A program made the position numbers and the translations under genes. Below, one piece after another: positions 40,708 to 48,068 of a stretch of 64,000 nt of DNA. The stretch comes from a bacterium (GTDB lineage: Bacteria > Bacillota > Clostridia > Oscillospirales > Oscillospiraceae), in contig CAVBJJ010000006.1 of assembly GCA_963595735.1 (NCBI GenBank), forward strand, positions 14,694 through 78,693, written 5' to 3'. Each line of letters starts with the position of its first letter. The stretch's first letter is position 1. Below the pieces are notes generated by a model, which saw nothing but the letters and a program-made list of their open reading frames with translations, searched no databases and had not been told where the DNA came from.

Positions 40708-40783
40708 CGGGGTGTGGCGCAGTTGGTAGCGCGCATGGTTCGGGTCCATGAGGCCGTGGGTTCAAATCCCGCCACTCCGACCA
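40708..40783 (+). tRNA. tRNA-Pro (anticodon CGG), CCA encoded
   Basis: Hand-folded cloverleaf. Acceptor CGGGGTG/CACTCCG; D arm GCGC-AGTTGGTA-GCGC; anticodon stem CATGG/CCATG with loop TT-CGG-GT; T arm GTGGG-TTCAAAT-CCCGC; discriminator A plus CCA. Confidence 0.9.
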
Positions 40784-40790
40784 TATGAAT

Positions 40791-40834
40791 GAGACCCGCT
40801 TTTCGAACATTTTTATCGAAAAGTGGGTCTCTTC
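40791..40834 (+). terminator. Hairpin after tRNA-Pro
   Basis: GAGACCCGCTTTTCGA..TCGAAAAGTGGGTCTC; the T tail is weak. Confidence 0.55.
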
Positions 40835-40889
40835 ATGTCTTGAAAGCCTTGAAAGATCGGGGCTTTTTCTTTTTGCCGCGTTCCTTTAT

Positions 40890-42180
40890 TTGCTCCAAAA
40901 CTCTCAAAATGCGAAACTAATATTTTTATACAAGGTCGTTATTTGAACACAGCTTTTTCATAAACCAGCCCAATAAGCTTCCTCGAATGCCGTTGGTGTC
41001 TTGTATTTCAAAGTCCGATGAGGACGAAGCTCATTGTAAAATTGGATGTACCGCTCCACGCTTTTGCGGTAGCTTTGTTCTGAGGTGTACTCTCTGCGGT
41101 ACGCCTCCTCTTTTTTGAAGGAAGCAAAAAATGCTTCAGCCACCGCATTGTCATGCGGACGTGCCGTAGCGGAAAAGGACTGCTTCACGCCGCACTTTTG
41201 CAGGAGCGCTGTAAATGCAGCCGAGGTGTACTGTTTTCCGCGGTCGCTGTGAAAAGTGAGGCCGCTGGGCTCTCCGCGTTCCCGAAAAGCGGCCCGAAAC
41301 GTGCTGGTGACTAAATTGGTGCTTGCGTTACGGGATACCCGATGGCCGATGACCTTGCGGGAGAAAAGATCCAGGATGACGCAAAAGTAGACCCAGTAGT
41401 CATTGACCTTGAAATACGTAACGTCACTGACCCAGAACTGGTTTGGATGATCTGCGGTGAACTGTCGCTCCAACAGGTTTTGCTTTTTATTATACTGTTG
41501 CTGTTTCTTGTATTGCTTCTTGGCATCAGGGCAGATGCTGTGCAGGTCCAGTTCCTGCATGATTGCTGCAATGCGTTTGGTGCTAACCCGGACACCGCTC
41601 TCAGCCAGAGTGATGCGGATTTTTTCAGCACCAAATCGCTGAGCGCTGTCATCAAAGACCTGCTGCACGAGCCGCATAAGCTGCGCCTGTTCCTGATCAC
41701 GCTTGCTGTGGTCCGCCCGGCGGAAGATGTGGTTGTAAAATGTACCACGAGCGACATCTAACGCTTTGCACAGCTCGTGAACGCTATAAGTATTATCCGA
41801 TTGGTGATAGAGGTTTTCCAATATGGAAAGCCTCTTCTGCAGGGGAACACTCGTTATACACTGTGAAAGGCGAATGATTTCCATTTCATGTTCCAGTTTT
41901 GTTAGCCGTCTTGAAATGCTATCAAACTCCTTTGGCGTGTAGGTGCGGTTTGTTCCTTGGATAGTGCAGTACTCCTTCCGCCAGCGGTAAAGTGTTCCCT
42001 GAGCAATGTGCAGTTCAAGGCTGAGAGATTTGATGGATTCTCCGCTTTGATAACGCTTAATGACTTTTTGCTTGAAATCTGCCAGGTACTTGGTGGGCAT
42101 GGTCTCATCTCCTTGCATGTGATGAGATTATTGTAAGCTGGTATTTAGAGTGAGAAAAGAGTTTTATGTGTCTATAAATA
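40890..42180 (-). mobile_element. IS3-family insertion sequence (ends approximate)
   Basis: Contains a single transposase ORF. Only a short shared terminal motif (AAAACTCT near 40897 and, inverted, near 42172) could be found by eye, so the boundaries are uncertain. Confidence 0.6.
40958..42100 (-). CDS. IS3-family transposase (HTH plus DDE/rve domains in one ORF)
   Basis: 380 aa. N-terminal HTH (..SIKSLSLELHIAQGTLYRWRKEY), then the rve core (..FWVSDVTYF..LTFHSDRGKQYTS..HDNAVAEAFF..). ATG 42100 follows a GGAG RBS. Confidence 0.9.
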   Translation of the reverse strand: MPTKYLADFKQKVIKRYQSGESIKSLSLELHIAQGTLYRWRKEYCTIQGTNRTYTPKEFDSISRRLTKLEHEMEIIRLSQCITSVPLQKRLSILENLYHQSDNTYSVHELCKALDVARGTFYNHIFRRADHSKRDQEQAQLMRLVQQVFDDSAQRFGAEKIRITLAESGVRVSTKRIAAIMQELDLHSICPDAKKQYKKQQQYNKKQNLLERQFTADHPNQFWVSDVTYFKVNDYWVYFCVILDLFSRKVIGHRVSRNASTNLVTSTFRAAFRERGEPSGLTFHSDRGKQYTSAAFTALLQKCGVKQSFSATARPHDNAVAEAFFASFKKEEAYRREYTSEQSYRKSVERYIQFYNELRPHRTLKYKTPTAFEEAYWAGL

Positions 42181-42259
42181 ATTGTCGACGGGATGAGAAA
42201 AGGCTGATATAATGTAGGCAGTAAAAAGTAACAAGGATAGCGATTTGGAGATGATGCAA

Positions 42260-42571
42260 ATGTTGGATAAACGCTCAAGAAAAGTATTACGGTATATTAA
42301 AAAGCATGGGCAGGCAAACTTTTCTGAGCTATTAGAATTGGATCATAATGAATCACTTGTTGCACAAATGTTGGTCATGCTGAATGCAGAGGGATACACC
42401 ATACAAGTAGCAAAAGAGTCTGATGGTAAGCGTCAAGCGGTATACGAGTTACAAGGAAAAGGATTTGGAGCTTTAGAGGAATATAGAAGGCAGGCAGTTT
42501 ATGCATATGTGCCGATATTAATTTCCTTACTCGCATTGGTAATTTCAATTCTTTCTTTTTTCAGAGGATAA
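42260..42571 (+). CDS. Small winged-helix-like protein with a C-terminal TM anchor (hypothetical)
   Basis: About 103 aa: MLDKRSRKVLRYIKKHGQANFSELL.. then the hydrophobic tail YVPILISLLALVISILSFF. AT-rich. Start ambiguous (42251, 42254 or 42260). Confidence 0.55.
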   Translation: MLDKRSRKVLRYIKKHGQANFSELLELDHNESLVAQMLVMLNAEGYTIQVAKESDGKRQAVYELQGKGFGALEEYRRQAVYAYVPILISLLALVISILSFFRG

Positions 42572-42587
42572 CAGAGGAGAATAAACA

Positions 42588-43472
42588 ATGCCACAAAATG
42601 ATAAGATCCAACTGTTCGAAGACAAGCGTATTCGTACCGCATGGGATGAAAAAAAGGAAGAATGGTACTTTTCTATCGTTGATGTGGTAGCTGTGCTGAC
42701 TGATCAGCCGGATCAGCGCCATGCGGCGAAATATTGGAGTGTTCTCAAGACTCGCTTAAAAAAAGAAGGCAGTGAGTTGACTACAAATTGTAGTCAACTG
42801 AAAATGCGCTCCGCAGATGGCAAGCGATACAATACCGATGTAGCCGACACCGAGCAGCTTCTCCGAATCATCCAGTCCATTCCTTCCCCGAAAGCAGAAC
42901 CGTTCAAGCTGTGGCTGGCGCAGGTCGGTCGGGAGCGTATCGAGGAGACCATCGACCCGGAGCTGACCATTGACCGCGCTCTGGAAACCTATCTCAAGAA
43001 GGGGTACAGCCGTGAGTGGATCAACCAGCGGCTGCAGGCCATTCAAGTTCGCAAAGAACTGACGGATGAATGGGATGCCCGCGGTGTGCAGAAGGGCATC
43101 GAGTACGCCATCCTCACAGATGAGATCTCCCGTGCATGGTCCGGCATGTCCACCCGGCAGTACAAGAATCTGAAGGGCTTGAAAAAGGAAAACCTTCGTG
43201 ATAACATGACGACACTGGAGCTGGTACTGAACATGCTGGCGGAGGCGACTACCACTCAGTTTTCAAAAGACCGCAAGCCGACGACCTTCCAAGAGAATCT
43301 GGCAGTTGCCAAGGCGGGTGGCCAGGTTGCCGGACGAACCAGAAAAGACATTGAGTCCCAGTCAGATACGCCAGTCATCACCTCCAAGAACGCCGCACAG
43401 CTCCAGCAGGTCGTGACAGACCTGCTGGAAAGCGCAGTCTCTGACACAACTGAAGAATCAAAAGACAAGTAG
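42588..43472 (+). CDS. Bro-N domain / DinD-like (DNA-damage-inducible protein D family) protein
   Basis: 294 aa. N-terminal ..FEDKRIRTAWDEKKEEWYFSIVDVVAVL.. is Bro-N-like. C-terminal ..YKNLKGLKKENLRDNMTTLELVLNMLAEATT.. parallels E. coli DinD as I recall it. RBS GGAG. Confidence 0.7.
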   Translation: MPQNDKIQLFEDKRIRTAWDEKKEEWYFSIVDVVAVLTDQPDQRHAAKYWSVLKTRLKKEGSELTTNCSQLKMRSADGKRYNTDVADTEQLLRIIQSIPSPKAEPFKLWLAQVGRERIEETIDPELTIDRALETYLKKGYSREWINQRLQAIQVRKELTDEWDARGVQKGIEYAILTDEISRAWSGMSTRQYKNLKGLKKENLRDNMTTLELVLNMLAEATTTQFSKDRKPTTFQENLAVAKAGGQVAGRTRKDIESQSDTPVITSKNAAQLQQVVTDLLESAVSDTTEESKDK

Positions 43473-43554
43473 GCTCTGCGCATCAAGTTTTCTTGCTGTC
43501 ATACACCGATTTTTTGAAAACAATTTCAAAAAATCTATAGTGTTGAGTTATGAC

Positions 43555-43588
43555 ATCGGTGAGTCCTTAGGGGACTCACCGATTTTTT
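43555..43588 (+). terminator. Terminator after the dinD-like gene
   Basis: ATCGGTGAGTCC-ttag-GGACTCACCGAT followed by T6. Confidence 0.8.
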
Positions 43589-43692
43589 ATTGCTCATTTG
43601 TAAATTTTTTGATTTTGTTGCACGGAAATATACAACTTTTCGCCATTTACATCCTATATGTAGAAGACCCGTTTTTACATATAGGAGGAAAT

Positions 43693-44247
43693 ATGATATA
43701 CTACAAACAATGCAGCGGGACGCTTCTGCCGCAGAAAGCAGCAGAGCTACAAAACTGGGTGCAATGGACACACCACGCCGAGGACAAGACCCATTGCGAG
43801 GAATGTCTAAAATTAGATGGTCGCTGGTTTCAAAAGGAAAAAGCTCCCCCTTGCCCACATCATCCCTATTGTCATTGCACATTGGAGCCGATCGACCATA
43901 CTGTCGTTCTTGCAAATGCGACCACATGCAGCAGCTACAGTAAGTTTGATCCATACCTGTTTAACACTACTGGCGCATATACACACGGAAAAGAAGAGCT
44001 GTTCAAATTATGGGGGTATGCGGTTGAGGATATTCCTTGGCTCAAAGCTGAGATAGAGCGACAATCATTGGAGAAATATCTATCTGGCGATTATACATTG
44101 GGAAAGCTTGATAAAAACGGTCAAAGAATCAATATACGAATCGCCATTCAACGAAGAGGTACCGGTGAGCTTGTAACATTTCTGTCTGGTTGGATAGCTC
44201 GCCCTAATGAACTCTTGCAAATGACTACACCATATGGAGATGATTGA
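43693..44247 (+). CDS. MuF-type Cys/His knuckle fused to a DUF6883-like C-terminal domain (hypothetical, toxin-like)
   Basis: 184 aa. Contains HCEECLKLDG..PCPHHPYCHC, then KFDPYLFN..GKEELFKLWGY..RINIRIAIQ..LVTFLSGWIARPNELLQMTTPYG. AGGAGG RBS upstream of ATG 43693. Family names are from memory. Confidence 0.65.
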   Translation: MIYYKQCSGTLLPQKAAELQNWVQWTHHAEDKTHCEECLKLDGRWFQKEKAPPCPHHPYCHCTLEPIDHTVVLANATTCSSYSKFDPYLFNTTGAYTHGKEELFKLWGYAVEDIPWLKAEIERQSLEKYLSGDYTLGKLDKNGQRINIRIAIQRRGTGELVTFLSGWIARPNELLQMTTPYGDD

Positions 44248-44248
44248 C

Positions 44249-44532
44249 ATGAAAGAATTAGATTGTGTTGAAGTTATTGTGGAGAAAAAAGTGTATGCCC
44301 GCGAAGGCGTACATATTGGTATGCAAGGTTGGATCTGCTTTGATGAATGTGCCGATGGTTATTGGCTTGTAAACTTTCCGCAGTATGGAGAAAAAAAGAT
44401 ATTGCAACCATATCCGTGAAAGAAGATGATGTGAAGATAATCCCACGAATGGATGCACAAATCAATGAGAGAATTAAAGCTCAGTTTGATAATCTGGAAA
44501 ATTCAGATGATTTGAGCGGGTATATGGTTTAA
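44249..44532 (+). pseudogene. DUF4926-like small gene interrupted by a -1 frameshift at A_AAA_AAG (pseudogene or programmed frameshift)
   Basis: Frame 0 (MKELDCVEVIVEKKVYAREGVHIGMQGWICF..YGEKK) stops at 44419. The -1 frame continues from 44398 (DIATISVKEDDVKIIP..) to 44532. The A7 run lies at 44391-44397. Confidence 0.6.
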
Positions 44533-44800
44533 TAGATACTTGAGTTAACAACCGCAATAACATTGGTACAAATTGTCTGATCTAATTGGATAAAAACCTC
44601 TTGCCGACTGCCAGAAAACCGTTGATATATCTGCGTTTTCTGAAATTCTATAATTACACTCCGGCCAAAAACCGGAAAATTTCTACGGAAACTTGCCGGT
44701 TTTTCATTTTATTTGCTTGTTTCTTCGCGCAGCAGATCATCCCTGTTCCATGCTGTAATTTTGCTGGTCAGAAATAGGTTTAATCGGACGCCCAGTACCG

Positions 44801-45012
44801 GCTTATCCGCCAGTATTTTGAACAAGCCAAAATACTGTGGGAAAGCCCAGCGGGGCTTTCCGCGGCGGTCTATCTGATTGAGGCGGGTCTTGCCCCCTTC
44901 AAGCTCCCCCGCTACCGCGGAAAACGATACTGCCCGCTGTTTTTAACAACCTTGCCTCTCCCAAAGGGAGAGCCAAGGGCAGGTACCCCGTTACATAGTT
45001 TTTGGACAGACT
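44801..45012 (-). repeat. Structured intergenic repeat, copy B (inverted relative to copy A)
   Basis: Its reverse complement aligns with 39665-39719 plus 39835-40000, at roughly 80-85% identity by eye. Contains the same 22-nt core and the same hairpins. Confidence 0.8.
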
Positions 45013-45014
45013 CA

Positions 45015-45056
45015 GCAAGCCCTGCACAGCGTTTTTTGTGTAGGGCTTGCTTTTTT
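45015..45056 (+). terminator. Hairpin with a T-run on the plus strand only
   Basis: GCAAGCCCT..AGGGCTTGC followed by T6, between repeat copy B and the stop of the minus-strand permease gene. Confidence 0.55.
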
Positions 45057-45072
45057 ATATCCATATCCGTTT

Positions 45073-47388
45073 TTACAATTCGTTCAGCGTTGCCGTGATG
45101 GGCATATTCCGGATGCGTTTTGCAGGGGCATAGACTGCTGCGGCGCAGGAAACGGAAACCAGCAGCACAACGATCCCAAAGGGCGCCAGCGGGAATTCCC
45201 ATGTGCCGCCGAAGTGGCTGAGGATCAGCTTGGCATACAGAACACGGTGCAGCAGTACGCCCAGCACCGTTCCCACAAGGGTGCCGCTGGCTGCATAGGC
45301 AAGCGCCTCCGCCGCGATCATTTTTGTCACCTGGCGGCTTTCCATACCCACGGCTCGCATGGCGCCGTACTGCTGCAGTCTTGCCGACACGCCCATGGAG
45401 ATGCTGTTCATGATATTCAGCACAGTGATCAGCGCAATGATCGCCAGAAAACCGGCCACCGCAAGGCGAAAGACCCAGTAAGAGCTGTAGGTACTCTGGC
45501 TTTGCCCTCTGTTGTCCGTCACCGGGTTCTCCCCCGCCAGCCGGCGGATCTGGCTCACGCTGCTTTCCGGCGCGTCCTTTTCCAGCGTCACGCCCAGAAT
45601 GGCATACTGCTGCACGCCCGTCAGCCGGGTAAAGGTCTGCTCCGAGCAGGCCACGGACGCTGCACCGCTGATGCCGCCGATGCCCTCGGAGGCGACACAG
45701 GCGATCTCCAGTTCCTGCCCGCCCAGTTGTATTTTGTCCCCGGTTTTCAGACTGTTGGCCTGATTATAAACCGCCATGGCATAGCCGGAATCTCCATACA
45801 CCGCGGAGACCATCCCGCTGACAGTGGAATCCCCAAACCGGCGCAGCATACCATCGCTATAGGAAAACAGGTCGATTTTCGTCTCCCTGCCGTTGACCGT
45901 GACCGGGCAGGCCGTCTGGAACATCACGCCGAAGGCATCCCCCACGCCGGGCAGTGCGGAGATCTCCCGGAGCAGGTCTTTGTCCAGGGAATTGGTGTCG
46001 TCCTGGCTGACAATGGAGAGATCCGGCGTAAAGTCGCTCTCCGCCGGCAGAAGCTTCTGCACAAAATCAAAGCCGGCAGCCGCGGCGAAAAACAGCACAA
46101 TCATCAGGGCAAAGGAGCCTGTCATCAGCAGCAGATTTTTCTTGGTCTCCCCCGCATAGCTCAGCCCCAGGGCGGTCTCCACCCGGAAAAGACCGGTTTT
46201 GGCAGCGCATCCCCGGCGCTTTGGCAGCACCGCATTGCCGGACACCGCCGCCACCGGCGAGACCTTTGCCGCCCGCCGCGCCGGAGACTGGGCGGCAAGA
46301 AACACCGTGACGACCCCCACGACCGCGCCGCTCACCAGCCCAATGGGACTCACGGAGAAAAGCGGCATATCGACCCACTCGCCCTTGACCAGGAAGCGCA
46401 GGATGGCGCACAAAATCCAGCAGGTCACCGTTCCCAGGCCGCAGCCGATGGGGATGGCGGTCTTGCACCAGTGCAGGGCTTCCAGCCGGACAAAGCGGAT
46501 GATCTGCTCCCGGCTTGCACCGATGCAGCGCATCATGCCGAAAAACTGCGTCCGCTGCGCCACATTGCTGTTCATGCAGCCGGAAATCATGAACACGCCG
46601 GAGATCAGGATGATGACAAAACAGACCGCCGCCGTCTGGTAAAAGCCGGAAAGGAGCGTACTGCTGCTGGCGCCCAGCATTCCCAAAACGCCGGTGTTTT
46701 CCCTGACCGCGACCCCGTCCAGGCCGTATTCCTGCTTCAGTGCGGCAATAGTTTTTTGCAGGCCGCGCTCAGAGCGAAAGCGGATGTAATATGCAGACTG
46801 GGCCGTCTCGCTGTTTTGGGCGCAGACCGCAGCAAAGGCCGCCCGCTCCATATATGCGCAAAAGTCCCCCTGTCCGGCGCCGTCCTCATAAAAGCCGGAA
46901 ACAGTATAGGACAGCTCCCCTGCCGGCGTGTGCAGGCTGACCTTGTCTCCCAGCTGCACGCCCAAAAAGCTTTTGGCGCAGGCGCTCAGGGCGATCTCCC
47001 CTGCGCTCCGGGGGCAGCTTCCCTCCGCCGGATACTGCATGATCTGGGTAAGATAGCGCTCCTCCGCACCATACAGAAGCACCGCTTCTCCGCCGATTTG
47101 ATACTCCCCCGCCGTGTCCGATTCCAGGGAATCGCACCAGGCGGAACGGGCGATATCGGAATGCTCCCGAATCTGCTTTACGGTTTCCTCCGGCACATTT
47201 TGCAGGGCAATGTGCCAATCGCCGTGGTTGCGCCGCATGGCCGTTGTCTCGGACTTTGTCCACATTTCCGACATGGAGAAAATGGAGGTGACAAGGAACA
47301 CCGCAAGGACGATGCAGATACGGGTCATGCGGCTTTGGCGTTTGTGTACCCGCGCCGAAACGGGAATCAGACTGAGATAGCTTCTCAT
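45073..47388 (-). CDS. ABC transporter permease with two FtsX domains (BceB/MacB-like)
   Basis: 771 aa, about 10 TM segments. The ATG overlaps the ATPase stop (ATGA). The ORF-track N-terminal 163 aa are rejected because they lie out of frame over the ATPase gene. Confidence 0.85.
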   Translation of the reverse strand: MRSYLSLIPVSARVHKRQSRMTRICIVLAVFLVTSIFSMSEMWTKSETTAMRRNHGDWHIALQNVPEETVKQIREHSDIARSAWCDSLESDTAGEYQIGGEAVLLYGAEERYLTQIMQYPAEGSCPRSAGEIALSACAKSFLGVQLGDKVSLHTPAGELSYTVSGFYEDGAGQGDFCAYMERAAFAAVCAQNSETAQSAYYIRFRSERGLQKTIAALKQEYGLDGVAVRENTGVLGMLGASSSTLLSGFYQTAAVCFVIILISGVFMISGCMNSNVAQRTQFFGMMRCIGASREQIIRFVRLEALHWCKTAIPIGCGLGTVTCWILCAILRFLVKGEWVDMPLFSVSPIGLVSGAVVGVVTVFLAAQSPARRAAKVSPVAAVSGNAVLPKRRGCAAKTGLFRVETALGLSYAGETKKNLLLMTGSFALMIVLFFAAAAGFDFVQKLLPAESDFTPDLSIVSQDDTNSLDKDLLREISALPGVGDAFGVMFQTACPVTVNGRETKIDLFSYSDGMLRRFGDSTVSGMVSAVYGDSGYAMAVYNQANSLKTGDKIQLGGQELEIACVASEGIGGISGAASVACSEQTFTRLTGVQQYAILGVTLEKDAPESSVSQIRRLAGENPVTDNRGQSQSTYSSYWVFRLAVAGFLAIIALITVLNIMNSISMGVSARLQQYGAMRAVGMESRQVTKMIAAEALAYAASGTLVGTVLGVLLHRVLYAKLILSHFGGTWEFPLAPFGIVVLLVSVSCAAAVYAPAKRIRNMPITATLNEL

Positions 47389-48068
47389 TCCCGGCACCTC
47401 CCAAAGTCCGTCAGGCTGCCGTCCGACACCTGCAGCACCCGATCTGCCGTCTGGGCAATGCTGCGGTTGTGGGTGATCATGAGAATGGTCTGCTCGTACT
47501 TGCGGGAAGCCTCCTGCAGCAGGGCGATGACCTCGCGGCTGTTCCGGCTGTCCAGATTGCCGGTCGGCTCGTCGGCCAGAATCAGCGCCGGCCGGGTCAG
47601 CAGCGCTCGACCGATCGCCACGCGCTGCTGCTGTCCACCGGAAAGCTGGCTTGGCAGGTGGTTCCGGCGTCCCTGCAGATCCAGCGCCGTGAGCAGCTCG
47701 TCCAGATATTTTCGATCCGGCTTCTGGTAATCCAAAAGCACCGGGAACAGGATGTTCTGCTCCACCGTCAGCTCCGGTACCAAGTTGAAGGCCTGAAAAA
47801 TAAAGCCGATATTTCGCCGGCGGAATATGGTGCGCTTTTTGTCGTTCATGGAAAAAATGTCCTTGCCGTCGATCCACACCTTTCCGGTGGTGGGCGTGTC
47901 CAGTGCGCCGATCATGTTCAGCAGGGTACTTTTTCCGGAGCCGGATTCTCCCACCACCGCCACATACTCCCCTTTGGGAACGGAAAAGCTGACATCCCGC
48001 AGCGCTTTCACCGCGGTCTCTCCGCTGCCATAGGTCTTACAAAGATTTTGAACCTCTAATAAGTTCAT
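47385..48068 (-). CDS. ABC transporter ATP-binding protein (BceA/MacB-type)
   Basis: 227 aa with Walker A GESGSGKST, signature LSGGQQQRV, and Walker B LILADEPTGNLD. Confidence 0.95.
   Translation of the reverse strand: MNLLEVQNLCKTYGSGETAVKALRDVSFSVPKGEYVAVVGESGSGKSTLLNMIGALDTPTTGKVWIDGKDIFSMNDKKRTIFRRRNIGFIFQAFNLVPELTVEQNILFPVLLDYQKPDRKYLDELLTALDLQGRRNHLPSQLSGGQQQRVAIGRALLTRPALILADEPTGNLDSRNSREVIALLQEASRKYEQTILMITHNRSIAQTADRVLQVSDGSLTDFGRCRE

Follow-up and report, generated by a model that had tools for sequence, protein, structure and literature searches.

The window analysed here is the 64,000-nucleotide stretch of contig CAVBJJ010000006.1 (positions 14,694 to 78,693, forward strand) in the assembly GCA_963595735.1 of an Oscillospiraceae bacterium, and it carries two abutting genes on the plus strand, a large one encoding 184 amino acids (43693-44247) and a small, interrupted one (44249-44532). 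These genes probably represent a decaying two-gene cassette of the polymorphic-toxin type, made up of a BECR-fold RNase toxin and an SH3-like immunity protein and inactive in this copy. The first gene would encode a cytoplasmic protein whose DUF6883 (BECR-Tox3) domain acts as a colicin-like BECR endoribonuclease, most likely a tRNase, behind about 65 N-terminal residues that would be a zinc knuckle originating from the C-terminal portion of a phage MuF head protein. The product of the second gene, a divergent SH3-like relative of DUF4926, would bind and block the toxin. A hairpin, a palindrome-bearing leader, the two genes and a 3' element would travel as one mobile block, scattered over Oscillospirales chromosomes and occasionally placed at prophage ends. 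In the window, where the cassette lies in an islet adjacent to a tRNA-Pro gene, four private substitutions probably inactivated the toxin, and the immunity gene would thus have been free to frameshift.

The large protein and its C-terminal domain

The large gene (stop codon 44245-44247) is preceded by the Shine-Dalgarno sequence AGGAGG (43683-43688), and its reading frame and Cys/His knuckle were found as reported in a preliminary description of this DNA made from the sequence alone. That description had also assigned the C-terminal domain to DUF6883, and the Pfam search agreed: residues 83-173 matched the DUF6883 model (PF21814) with 27.6 bits, passing the gathering cut-off of 27.0, and the domain was placed at residues 83-184 (43939-44244, plus strand). 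The same model was matched by 62 of 63 members of the protein family, with a best E-value of 9e-10. A phmmer search with residues 75-184 against 1.84 billion representatives returned 360 matches; in nearly every full-length protein among the matches listed, with lengths of up to 3318 amino acids, DUF6883 stood at the C-terminus or a few residues from it. Among the long proteins, four have RHS repeats and others a DUF637 (CdiA-type), Tox-PAAR-like, T7SS_signal or PT-HINT (pretoxin-HINT) domain. Polymorphic toxins are defined by the sharing of one C-terminal tip between several families of delivery proteins (PMC5576092), and the presence of DUF6883 at the end of RHS, CdiA-type, PAAR, T7SS and PT-HINT proteins gives it the hallmark of a polymorphic-toxin domain.

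The AlphaFold2 model of the toxin (pLDDT 82.5, pTM 0.79) contains predicted helices at residues 100-106 and 111-131 and predicted strands at 135-140, 143-153, 160-170 and 174-179. The colicin-like BECR topology consists of a pre-alpha element, an alpha helix and strands beta1-4 (10.64898/2026.08.28.747851), and the predicted topology of DUF6883 matches that of these RNases. The best PDB match of the model in Foldseek was 6cp9_C (probability 0.99, TM-score 0.61, with a weak E-value of 0.048), from the CdiA-CT/CdiI complex of Klebsiella pneumoniae 342, a BECR tRNase system. Residues K84, K100, Q124, K128, Q144, R145 and T179 were invariant over the DUF6883 superfamily alignment, and H98 was conserved in 87% of the 183-amino-acid family. 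In PBECR domains and colicin D, a His on the N-terminal helix is combined with a C-terminal Thr (PMC5512222), and the conserved H98, K100 and T179 fit this pattern of a His or Lys on the N-terminal helix plus a C-terminal Thr.

The CdiA-CT/CdiI systems of K. pneumoniae 342 and Escherichia coli 3006 (PDB 6CP9 and 6CP8) and the colicin D/ImmD pair resemble the window toxin, for which the features are predicted, in the BECR core, the Lys or His on the N-terminal helix and the Thr near the C-terminus. In both, a dedicated immunity gene lies immediately downstream, as the putative one does here. The known substrates of the CdiA-CT/CdiI and colicin D toxins are tRNAs, and CdiA-CT Kp342 depends on EF-Tu/GTP. 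They differ from the cassette in their delivery, by the type V secretion system or by colicin import, and in their immunity folds; sequence similarity to them was not detectable, and the structural match is the weak one given above. Neither the toxin nor the small protein was matched in PADLOC, NCBIfam gave nothing significant for either protein, and when profiles of the toxin, of its C-terminal domain and of the small protein were run against PDB sequences, all matches were at chance level.

The N-terminal part of the protein contains the motif HCEECLKLDG..PCPHHPYCHC, a MuF-C-terminal-like Cys/His zinc knuckle at residues ~22-66 (43756-43890, plus strand; Pfam and PHROG). Its claimed resemblance to the C-terminal half of the MuF domain was borne out by the PHROG head-morphogenesis models (residues 23-71, E-value 2.6e-5), of which phrog_1657 was matched by 23 of the 63 family members, and by Foldseek against the BFVD viral models, in which about 50 residues aligned to MuF or minor-capsid proteins at ~2 Å with weak E-values. 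In Pfam, Phage_Mu_F (PF04233) aligned to residues 14-64 below its threshold (18.6 bits against a cut-off of 29.6, E-value 0.0032), the alignment spanned only positions 55-111 of the 112 in the model, which is its C-terminal half, and just 2 of the 63 members reached an E-value of 0.01 or better. TIGR01641 scored 13.6 against a cut-off of 39.65. By the Pfam criterion the 184-amino-acid protein is not a member of the MuF family. Within the knuckle, conservation in the family is 90% or higher for H34, C35, C38, C44, H56, H57, C60, H61 and C62, the window protein carrying R44. Searching with only the first 82 residues found 22 truncated fragments of the same family and no other toxin tips on that N-terminus, and no full-length MuF-DUF6883 fusion occurred among the relatives examined.

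MuF toxins and MuF-linked PBECR RNases were both described in 2017 (PMC5576092; PMC5512222). With the MuF polymorphic toxins (Jamet et al., 2017; PMC5576092) the window protein shares the motif HxxCxxC...PPxHxxCxC directly N-terminal to a toxin domain of ~100 amino acids, as well as the small open reading frame downstream. Set against the definition used by Jamet et al. (2017), the extension of at least 100 amino acids and the small open reading frame are present, and the full MuF domain and the temperate-phage context are absent. Unlike those toxins, the protein belongs to a family that is chromosomal in Oscillospirales, and it has no head-morphogenesis or prophage surroundings: its neighbours are a tRNA gene, an IS3 element, a Bro-N gene and an ABC transporter in place of portal or terminase genes, and no prophage was found in the 64-kb window. 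The bulk of the MuF domain and a prophage context are therefore both lacking, as had been noted from the sequence.

The partner gene and its linkage to the toxin gene

The small gene starts at ATG 44249, one nucleotide past the toxin stop, with its own Shine-Dalgarno sequence GGAG (44236-44239) nine bases upstream, in agreement with the preliminary description. It is interrupted in the window: a frame of 56 amino acids runs to 44419 and the remainder continues in another frame to 44532. The frame-repaired product has 94 amino acids, and intact proteins of 94 amino acids exist that are 96-98% identical to it. The search with the small protein returned 1759 homologues, none of them annotated by Pfam. 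The protein had been described as DUF4926-like, a claim that held in part. The DUF4926 model of Pfam (PF16277) did not match the repaired product at an E-value of 1 or below, nor any of 40 of its relatives at 10 or below. However, when distant DUF6883 toxin loci were fetched from metagenomes and their downstream open reading frames were scanned, the abutting frame of ~65 amino acids was a Pfam DUF4926 protein in 19 of the 19 loci with a small downstream frame, in agreement with the description of the two families as neighbours, and hhalign aligned the small-protein family of the window to these 19 verified DUF4926 proteins with a probability of 83.5% (E-value 8.3e-6, 60 columns, 28% identity). 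The AlphaFold2 model (pLDDT 73.9) shows a five-stranded SH3-like barrel with a C-terminal helix and resembled NdhS (TM-score 0.72, with a weak E-value of 0.03). These results suggest that the small protein is a divergent relative of DUF4926 that carries an additional C-terminal helix and an acidic tail. No recognisable DNA-binding domain was found in Pfam scans of the repaired product and the 40 relatives.

The preliminary description had presented the two genes as a candidate uncharacterised toxin-immunity pair. Pham et al. (bioRxiv 10.64898/2026.08.28.747851) defined DUF6883 as the new family "BECR-Tox3" of the colicin-like BECR group, often paired with DUF4926 and fused to Phage_Mu_F, and inferred a toxin-immunity organization; the idea is therefore not new. 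The BECR-Tox3/DUF4926 pairs and the window cassette have in common the Pfam toxin domain, the order of toxin followed by SH3-like partner and the predicted BECR fold, and in both cases the assignment rests on prediction. Unlike those pairs, the window cassette has a partner that the DUF4926 model does not recognise and that carries the extra C-terminal helix and acidic tail, and a short toxin (~183 amino acids) with a MuF-like knuckle in place of a delivery domain, in a decayed copy.

The search with the large protein found 278 homologues, nearly all of them full-length with 181-184 amino acids and 55-92% identical, and these, together with the 1759 homologues of the small protein, argue that the features described here are not due to chance. 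Homologues of about 183 amino acids occur in over 200 Oscillospirales genomes; a scan of one genome per species yielded 218 relatives, in Flavonifractor, Pseudoflavonifractor, Lawsonibacter, Flintibacter, Faecousia, Acutalibacteraceae and other Oscillospirales. The cassette is widespread in gut Clostridia and this locus is one copy of it. The surroundings of the related loci are unrelated to one another (LysR and CoA-transferase genes, a P-type ATPase gene, rplU-rpmA, the trmD region). The pair had been regarded as a stranded toxin-immunity-like cassette that lacks most of the MuF domain. The toxin-immunity type agrees with the gene linkage and the toxin-tip architectures, but the stranded remnant was ruled out because the ~183-amino-acid architecture, with its own leader, Shine-Dalgarno sequence and partner gene, is conserved in hundreds of genomes.

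The linkage between the two genes is strict. One or more small genes lay directly downstream of the toxin gene in each of 98 related loci. In the 80 species-representative loci, full-length toxins are without exception accompanied by an intact partner, and one is also retained beside at least 13 toxins that are split or truncated; the window is the sole case in which a full-length toxin is joined to a broken partner. Arrays of two to four consecutive immunity paralogues follow a single toxin in L015-L018, L022, L038, L049 and L078 (L numbers designate individual loci), and tandem toxin-immunity cassettes of two to three copies occur in L024, L040, L054 and L091. Some of the array and tandem loci have decayed toxins, and three or more loci are present in Flavonifractor plautii ATCC 29863.

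Immunity arrays, orphan immunity genes and tandem cassettes are typical of polymorphic toxin loci (PMC3482391). The arrays, the tandem cassettes and the orphan immunity genes beside decayed toxins would thus also suit a family of interbacterial weapons, exported or phage-borne, rather than an intracellular system of the toxin-antitoxin kind. The MuF knuckle would then serve trafficking or packaging, or act as a recombination handle for swapping into full-length MuF toxin genes, in the manner of orphan cdiA-CT/cdiI modules. The strong conservation of the knuckle is in line with this, as are the packaging of MuF proteins in capsids and their fusion to effectors (PMC5576092; PMC5512222). In the viral collection, two of three matches lay just after an endolysin or serine recombinase gene, i.e., at prophage ends. 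These three matches came from 2.9 million viral contigs, against the 218 in genomes, and the chromosomal neighbours are unrelated housekeeping genes. Each cassette also has its own conserved leader, Shine-Dalgarno sequence and start codon, unlike promoterless orphan modules; full-length MuF-DUF6883 fusions were absent, and Phage_Mu_F was reached only by the two members mentioned above. Such a weapon is therefore regarded as unlikely. In the viral contigs L129 (7218-8516) and L128 (2728-5105), the cassette directly follows an Amidase_3 endolysin gene, or a large serine recombinase gene, in moron-like positions.

Lesions in the window copy

Alignment to the metagenomic copy L013, which is 95.7% identical, contained a single gap, in which one A is lost from a run of eight. 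The resulting A7 run (44391-44397, plus strand) is the site of the -1 frameshift in the immunity gene, and intact relatives have A8. The toxin carries the substitutions G31D, C44R, M168I and G173E. Among 62 family members G31 and C44 were each present in 61, M168 in 56 and G173 in all 62, and the four residues are kept by all fourteen close relatives (at least 86% identity). Compared with L013, there are 16 nonsynonymous and 6 synonymous codon differences (dN/dS ~0.71). The lesions are most simply explained if damage to the toxin came first and drift of the immunity gene followed, and this copy is probably dead.

The same A7 allele was present in a Logan assembly (run SRR13434700) that matches the window with 100% identity over 1712 bp. 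As a separate assembly it speaks against an artefact of assembly, although run and window may derive from one sample. The Logan contig, L131, corresponds to positions 43181-44892 of the window; one of its ends lies within the bro-N gene and the other shortly beyond the 3' element, which suggests assembly-graph breakpoints, caused by repeats or by variation between strains, at the cassette edges.

The pair could still be functional here if an active toxin were countered by enough full-length immunity protein made through transcriptional or translational slippage on A7, or if A7 were a homopolymer sequencing error. The break does lie in a homopolymer, a classic site of both slippage and read errors. 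The toxin frame is of full length with the candidate catalytic residues H98, K100, R145 and T179 in place, and leader, Shine-Dalgarno sequence and hairpin are intact. Against this stand the identical A7 allele in the SRR13434700 assembly and the four private substitutions, at positions invariant in the 14 close relatives and shared by 55-61 of 61 more distant ones. The dN/dS value relative to the nearest relative and the fact that no other locus joins a full-length toxin to a broken partner also speak against it, and a pair that still functions in this genome was judged unlikely.

The reading of the cassette as a BECR RNase toxin and its immunity protein, both probably defunct in this copy, also has to be weighed against several observations. 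Chain C of 6CP9 may be either the toxin or CdiI, and the Foldseek E-values (0.03-0.05) are weak. No histidine is invariant over the wider superfamily. Neither enzymatic nor toxicity data were found in the literature for any DUF6883 protein: as the preliminary description had stated for the function, the one paper found to name DUF6883 predicts its role and tested a different family, the preprint having validated BECR-Tox2 and not Tox3 (10.64898/2026.08.28.747851). The cassette has no delivery domain, signal sequence or accompanying secretion genes, and the immunity arrays and orphan immunity genes fit conflict between cells or with phages better than a closed toxin-antitoxin module. Finally, the death of the toxin is deduced from conservation only, and the window protein retains H98, K100, Q144, R145 and T179, which leaves room for residual activity.

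The missing superfamily-wide histidine and the lack of experimental toxicity could be expected of a non-toxic protein, a domesticated and catalytically inert RNA-binding remnant of a phage head protein comparable to the inactive PBECR domain of Mu gp30, with the small protein as its chaperone or partner; a PBECR domain that is inactive was described in Mu's MuF protein by Iyer et al. (PMC5512222). This is very improbable, since the same domain terminates RHS, CdiA-type, PAAR, T7SS and PT-HINT proteins, the linkage is strict and of the immunity type, decay is asymmetric in that it affects the toxin before the partner, and the seven residues from K84 to T179 listed above are invariant throughout the superfamily.

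Under the preferred reading of a toxin-immunity cassette that has decayed in this genome, both genes of the window copy carry likely inactivating mutations and it is the wrong allele to clone. Because this copy is probably dead, a negative toxicity result for 43693-44247 would not refute the claim at the level of the family.

Flanking elements, genomic context and significance

The 5' edge of the cassette is a hairpin with a 13-bp stem (43555-43583) and a T-run, found by a terminator scan (43555-43589, plus strand), so that the terminator described ahead of the pair was recovered. The hairpin GGTGAGTCC-N5-GGACTCACC lies ~120 nt 5' of the toxin ATG in at least 10 other loci (L007, L013, L024, L032, L036, L040, L041, L047, L056 and L057), and its recurrence at the same place indicates that it travels with the cassette. 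A promoter-like hexamer pair stands directly 5' of the conserved hairpin and T-run (43514-43589); in a consensus promoter scan, sites were no more frequent than in shuffled sequences.

The leader carries an operator-like inverted repeat, GTTGCAC-GGAAAT-ATACAAC (43617-43636, plus strand). In 46 of 64 distinct upstream regions, compared to 5 of 64 shuffles, the corresponding 20-bp consensus, GTTG[C/T]AC-N6-GT[G/A]CAAC, occurred at a fixed position of -79 to -90. The Acutalibacteraceae subgroup lacks it, and in L013, the closest relative, a deletion of 34 bp has removed it. A structured RNA was rejected for this palindrome, as RNAalifold of the leader gave 4 pairs at -1.34 kcal/mol; in view of this weak energy it was treated as a DNA site, and it may be an operator. 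A second inverted repeat, CCTATATGTA-N13-TACATATAGG (43653-43685, plus strand), overlaps the toxin Shine-Dalgarno sequence (43683-43688) with its 3' arm, and other subgroups have different inverted repeats at this position.

On the 3' side, a conserved element (44588-44663, plus strand) consists of GGATAAAAACCTCTTGC followed by the sigma-70-like pair TTGATA-N17-TATAAT. GGATAAAAACCTCTTGC was found 2-3 nt past the immunity stop in 11 other loci, and in tandem arrays the element abuts the hairpin of the next cassette, as seen in L013 (413-535). The 3' element is ~75% identical to sequences of a Pusillibacter faecalis replicon and of a faecal phage contig. The promoter-like pair with its hairpin and the 3' element could act as an attenuator, an insulator or a source of a tiny RNA; Rfam found no RNA family in 42000-45200. 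Taken as sequence features, the hairpin, the palindromes and the 3' element point to a unit that may be insulated and autoregulated.

Toxin-first type II toxin-antitoxin systems (HigBA, HicAB) likewise have a promoter-region palindrome, and the cassette also has in common with them the abutting two-gene operon, the RNase-type toxin and small neutralising protein (both predicted here) and the scattered, multi-copy distribution over chromosomes and mobile elements. Unlike those systems, the cassette has a small protein with no recognisable DNA-binding domain, immunity arrays, and a toxin domain that is common to secreted polymorphic toxins.

The cassette had been placed in an AT-rich islet, which was correct for its own surroundings: the G+C content is 0.37-0.44 in 42000-42800 and 43400-44800, against 0.55-0.65 in the flanks. 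The intervening bro-N gene, at ~0.50-0.56, does not share this composition. The islet lies after tRNA-Pro(CGG) (40708-40783) and holds, in addition to the cassette, an IS3-family transposase gene (40958-42118, minus strand), a single frame of 386 amino acids with helix-turn-helix and rve domains, and a gene for a helix-turn-helix-like protein of 108 amino acids with a C-terminal hydrophobic, transmembrane helix (42245-42571). The region 40708-42571 has the look of a small island beside a tRNA gene, with the cassette as part of its cargo. Just 5' of the cassette is the gene for a Bro-N/DinD-like protein of 294 amino acids (42588-43472, plus strand), which matched the PADLOC single-gene phage-defence candidate PDC-S13 (E-value 4e-136) and phrog_15286 (E-value 2e-127). 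Nucleotide searches of the phage and plasmid collections matched this gene and, besides it, the 3' element only; the cassette had no match there. The islet is flanked by leuA/leuC-type genes and by a bacitracin-type ABC transporter with a two-component system, and the 64-kb window contained no second copy of the toxin gene or the small gene. In the FtsX-type permease frame (45073-47877, minus strand, 934 amino acids), the longest reading frame begins ~490 nt inside the ABC ATPase gene (47385-48068) and has a low-complexity N-terminus of ~150 amino acids; the true start is probably farther downstream.

The cassette may serve as an addiction module, in abortive infection or as an exported weapon. 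As a quite improbable extension, the combination of short knuckle-BECR toxin and extended DUF4926 protein might be a distinct, autonomously regulated mobile module, equipped with an insulating hairpin, an operator palindrome and a 3' element, in which a still functional knuckle docks on phage portal or capsid assemblies and the host-encoded RNase either senses and aborts infection or is packaged into virions and delivered to neighbours, the immunity arrays recording an arms race.

Compared with the published BECR-Tox3 prediction, the present analysis adds a short Oscillospirales subfamily, a divergent immunity family, evidence of asymmetric decay, a conserved regulatory leader and the probable death of this copy. 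DUF6883 and DUF4926 are widespread, and their gut-Clostridia subfamily is compact (~183 and 100 amino acids) and abundant in human and animal gut metagenomes. A partner that is never lost while the toxin is intact is a clean genetic signature of toxicity, and the compact subfamily would be a convenient system for a first biochemical test of BECR-Tox3.

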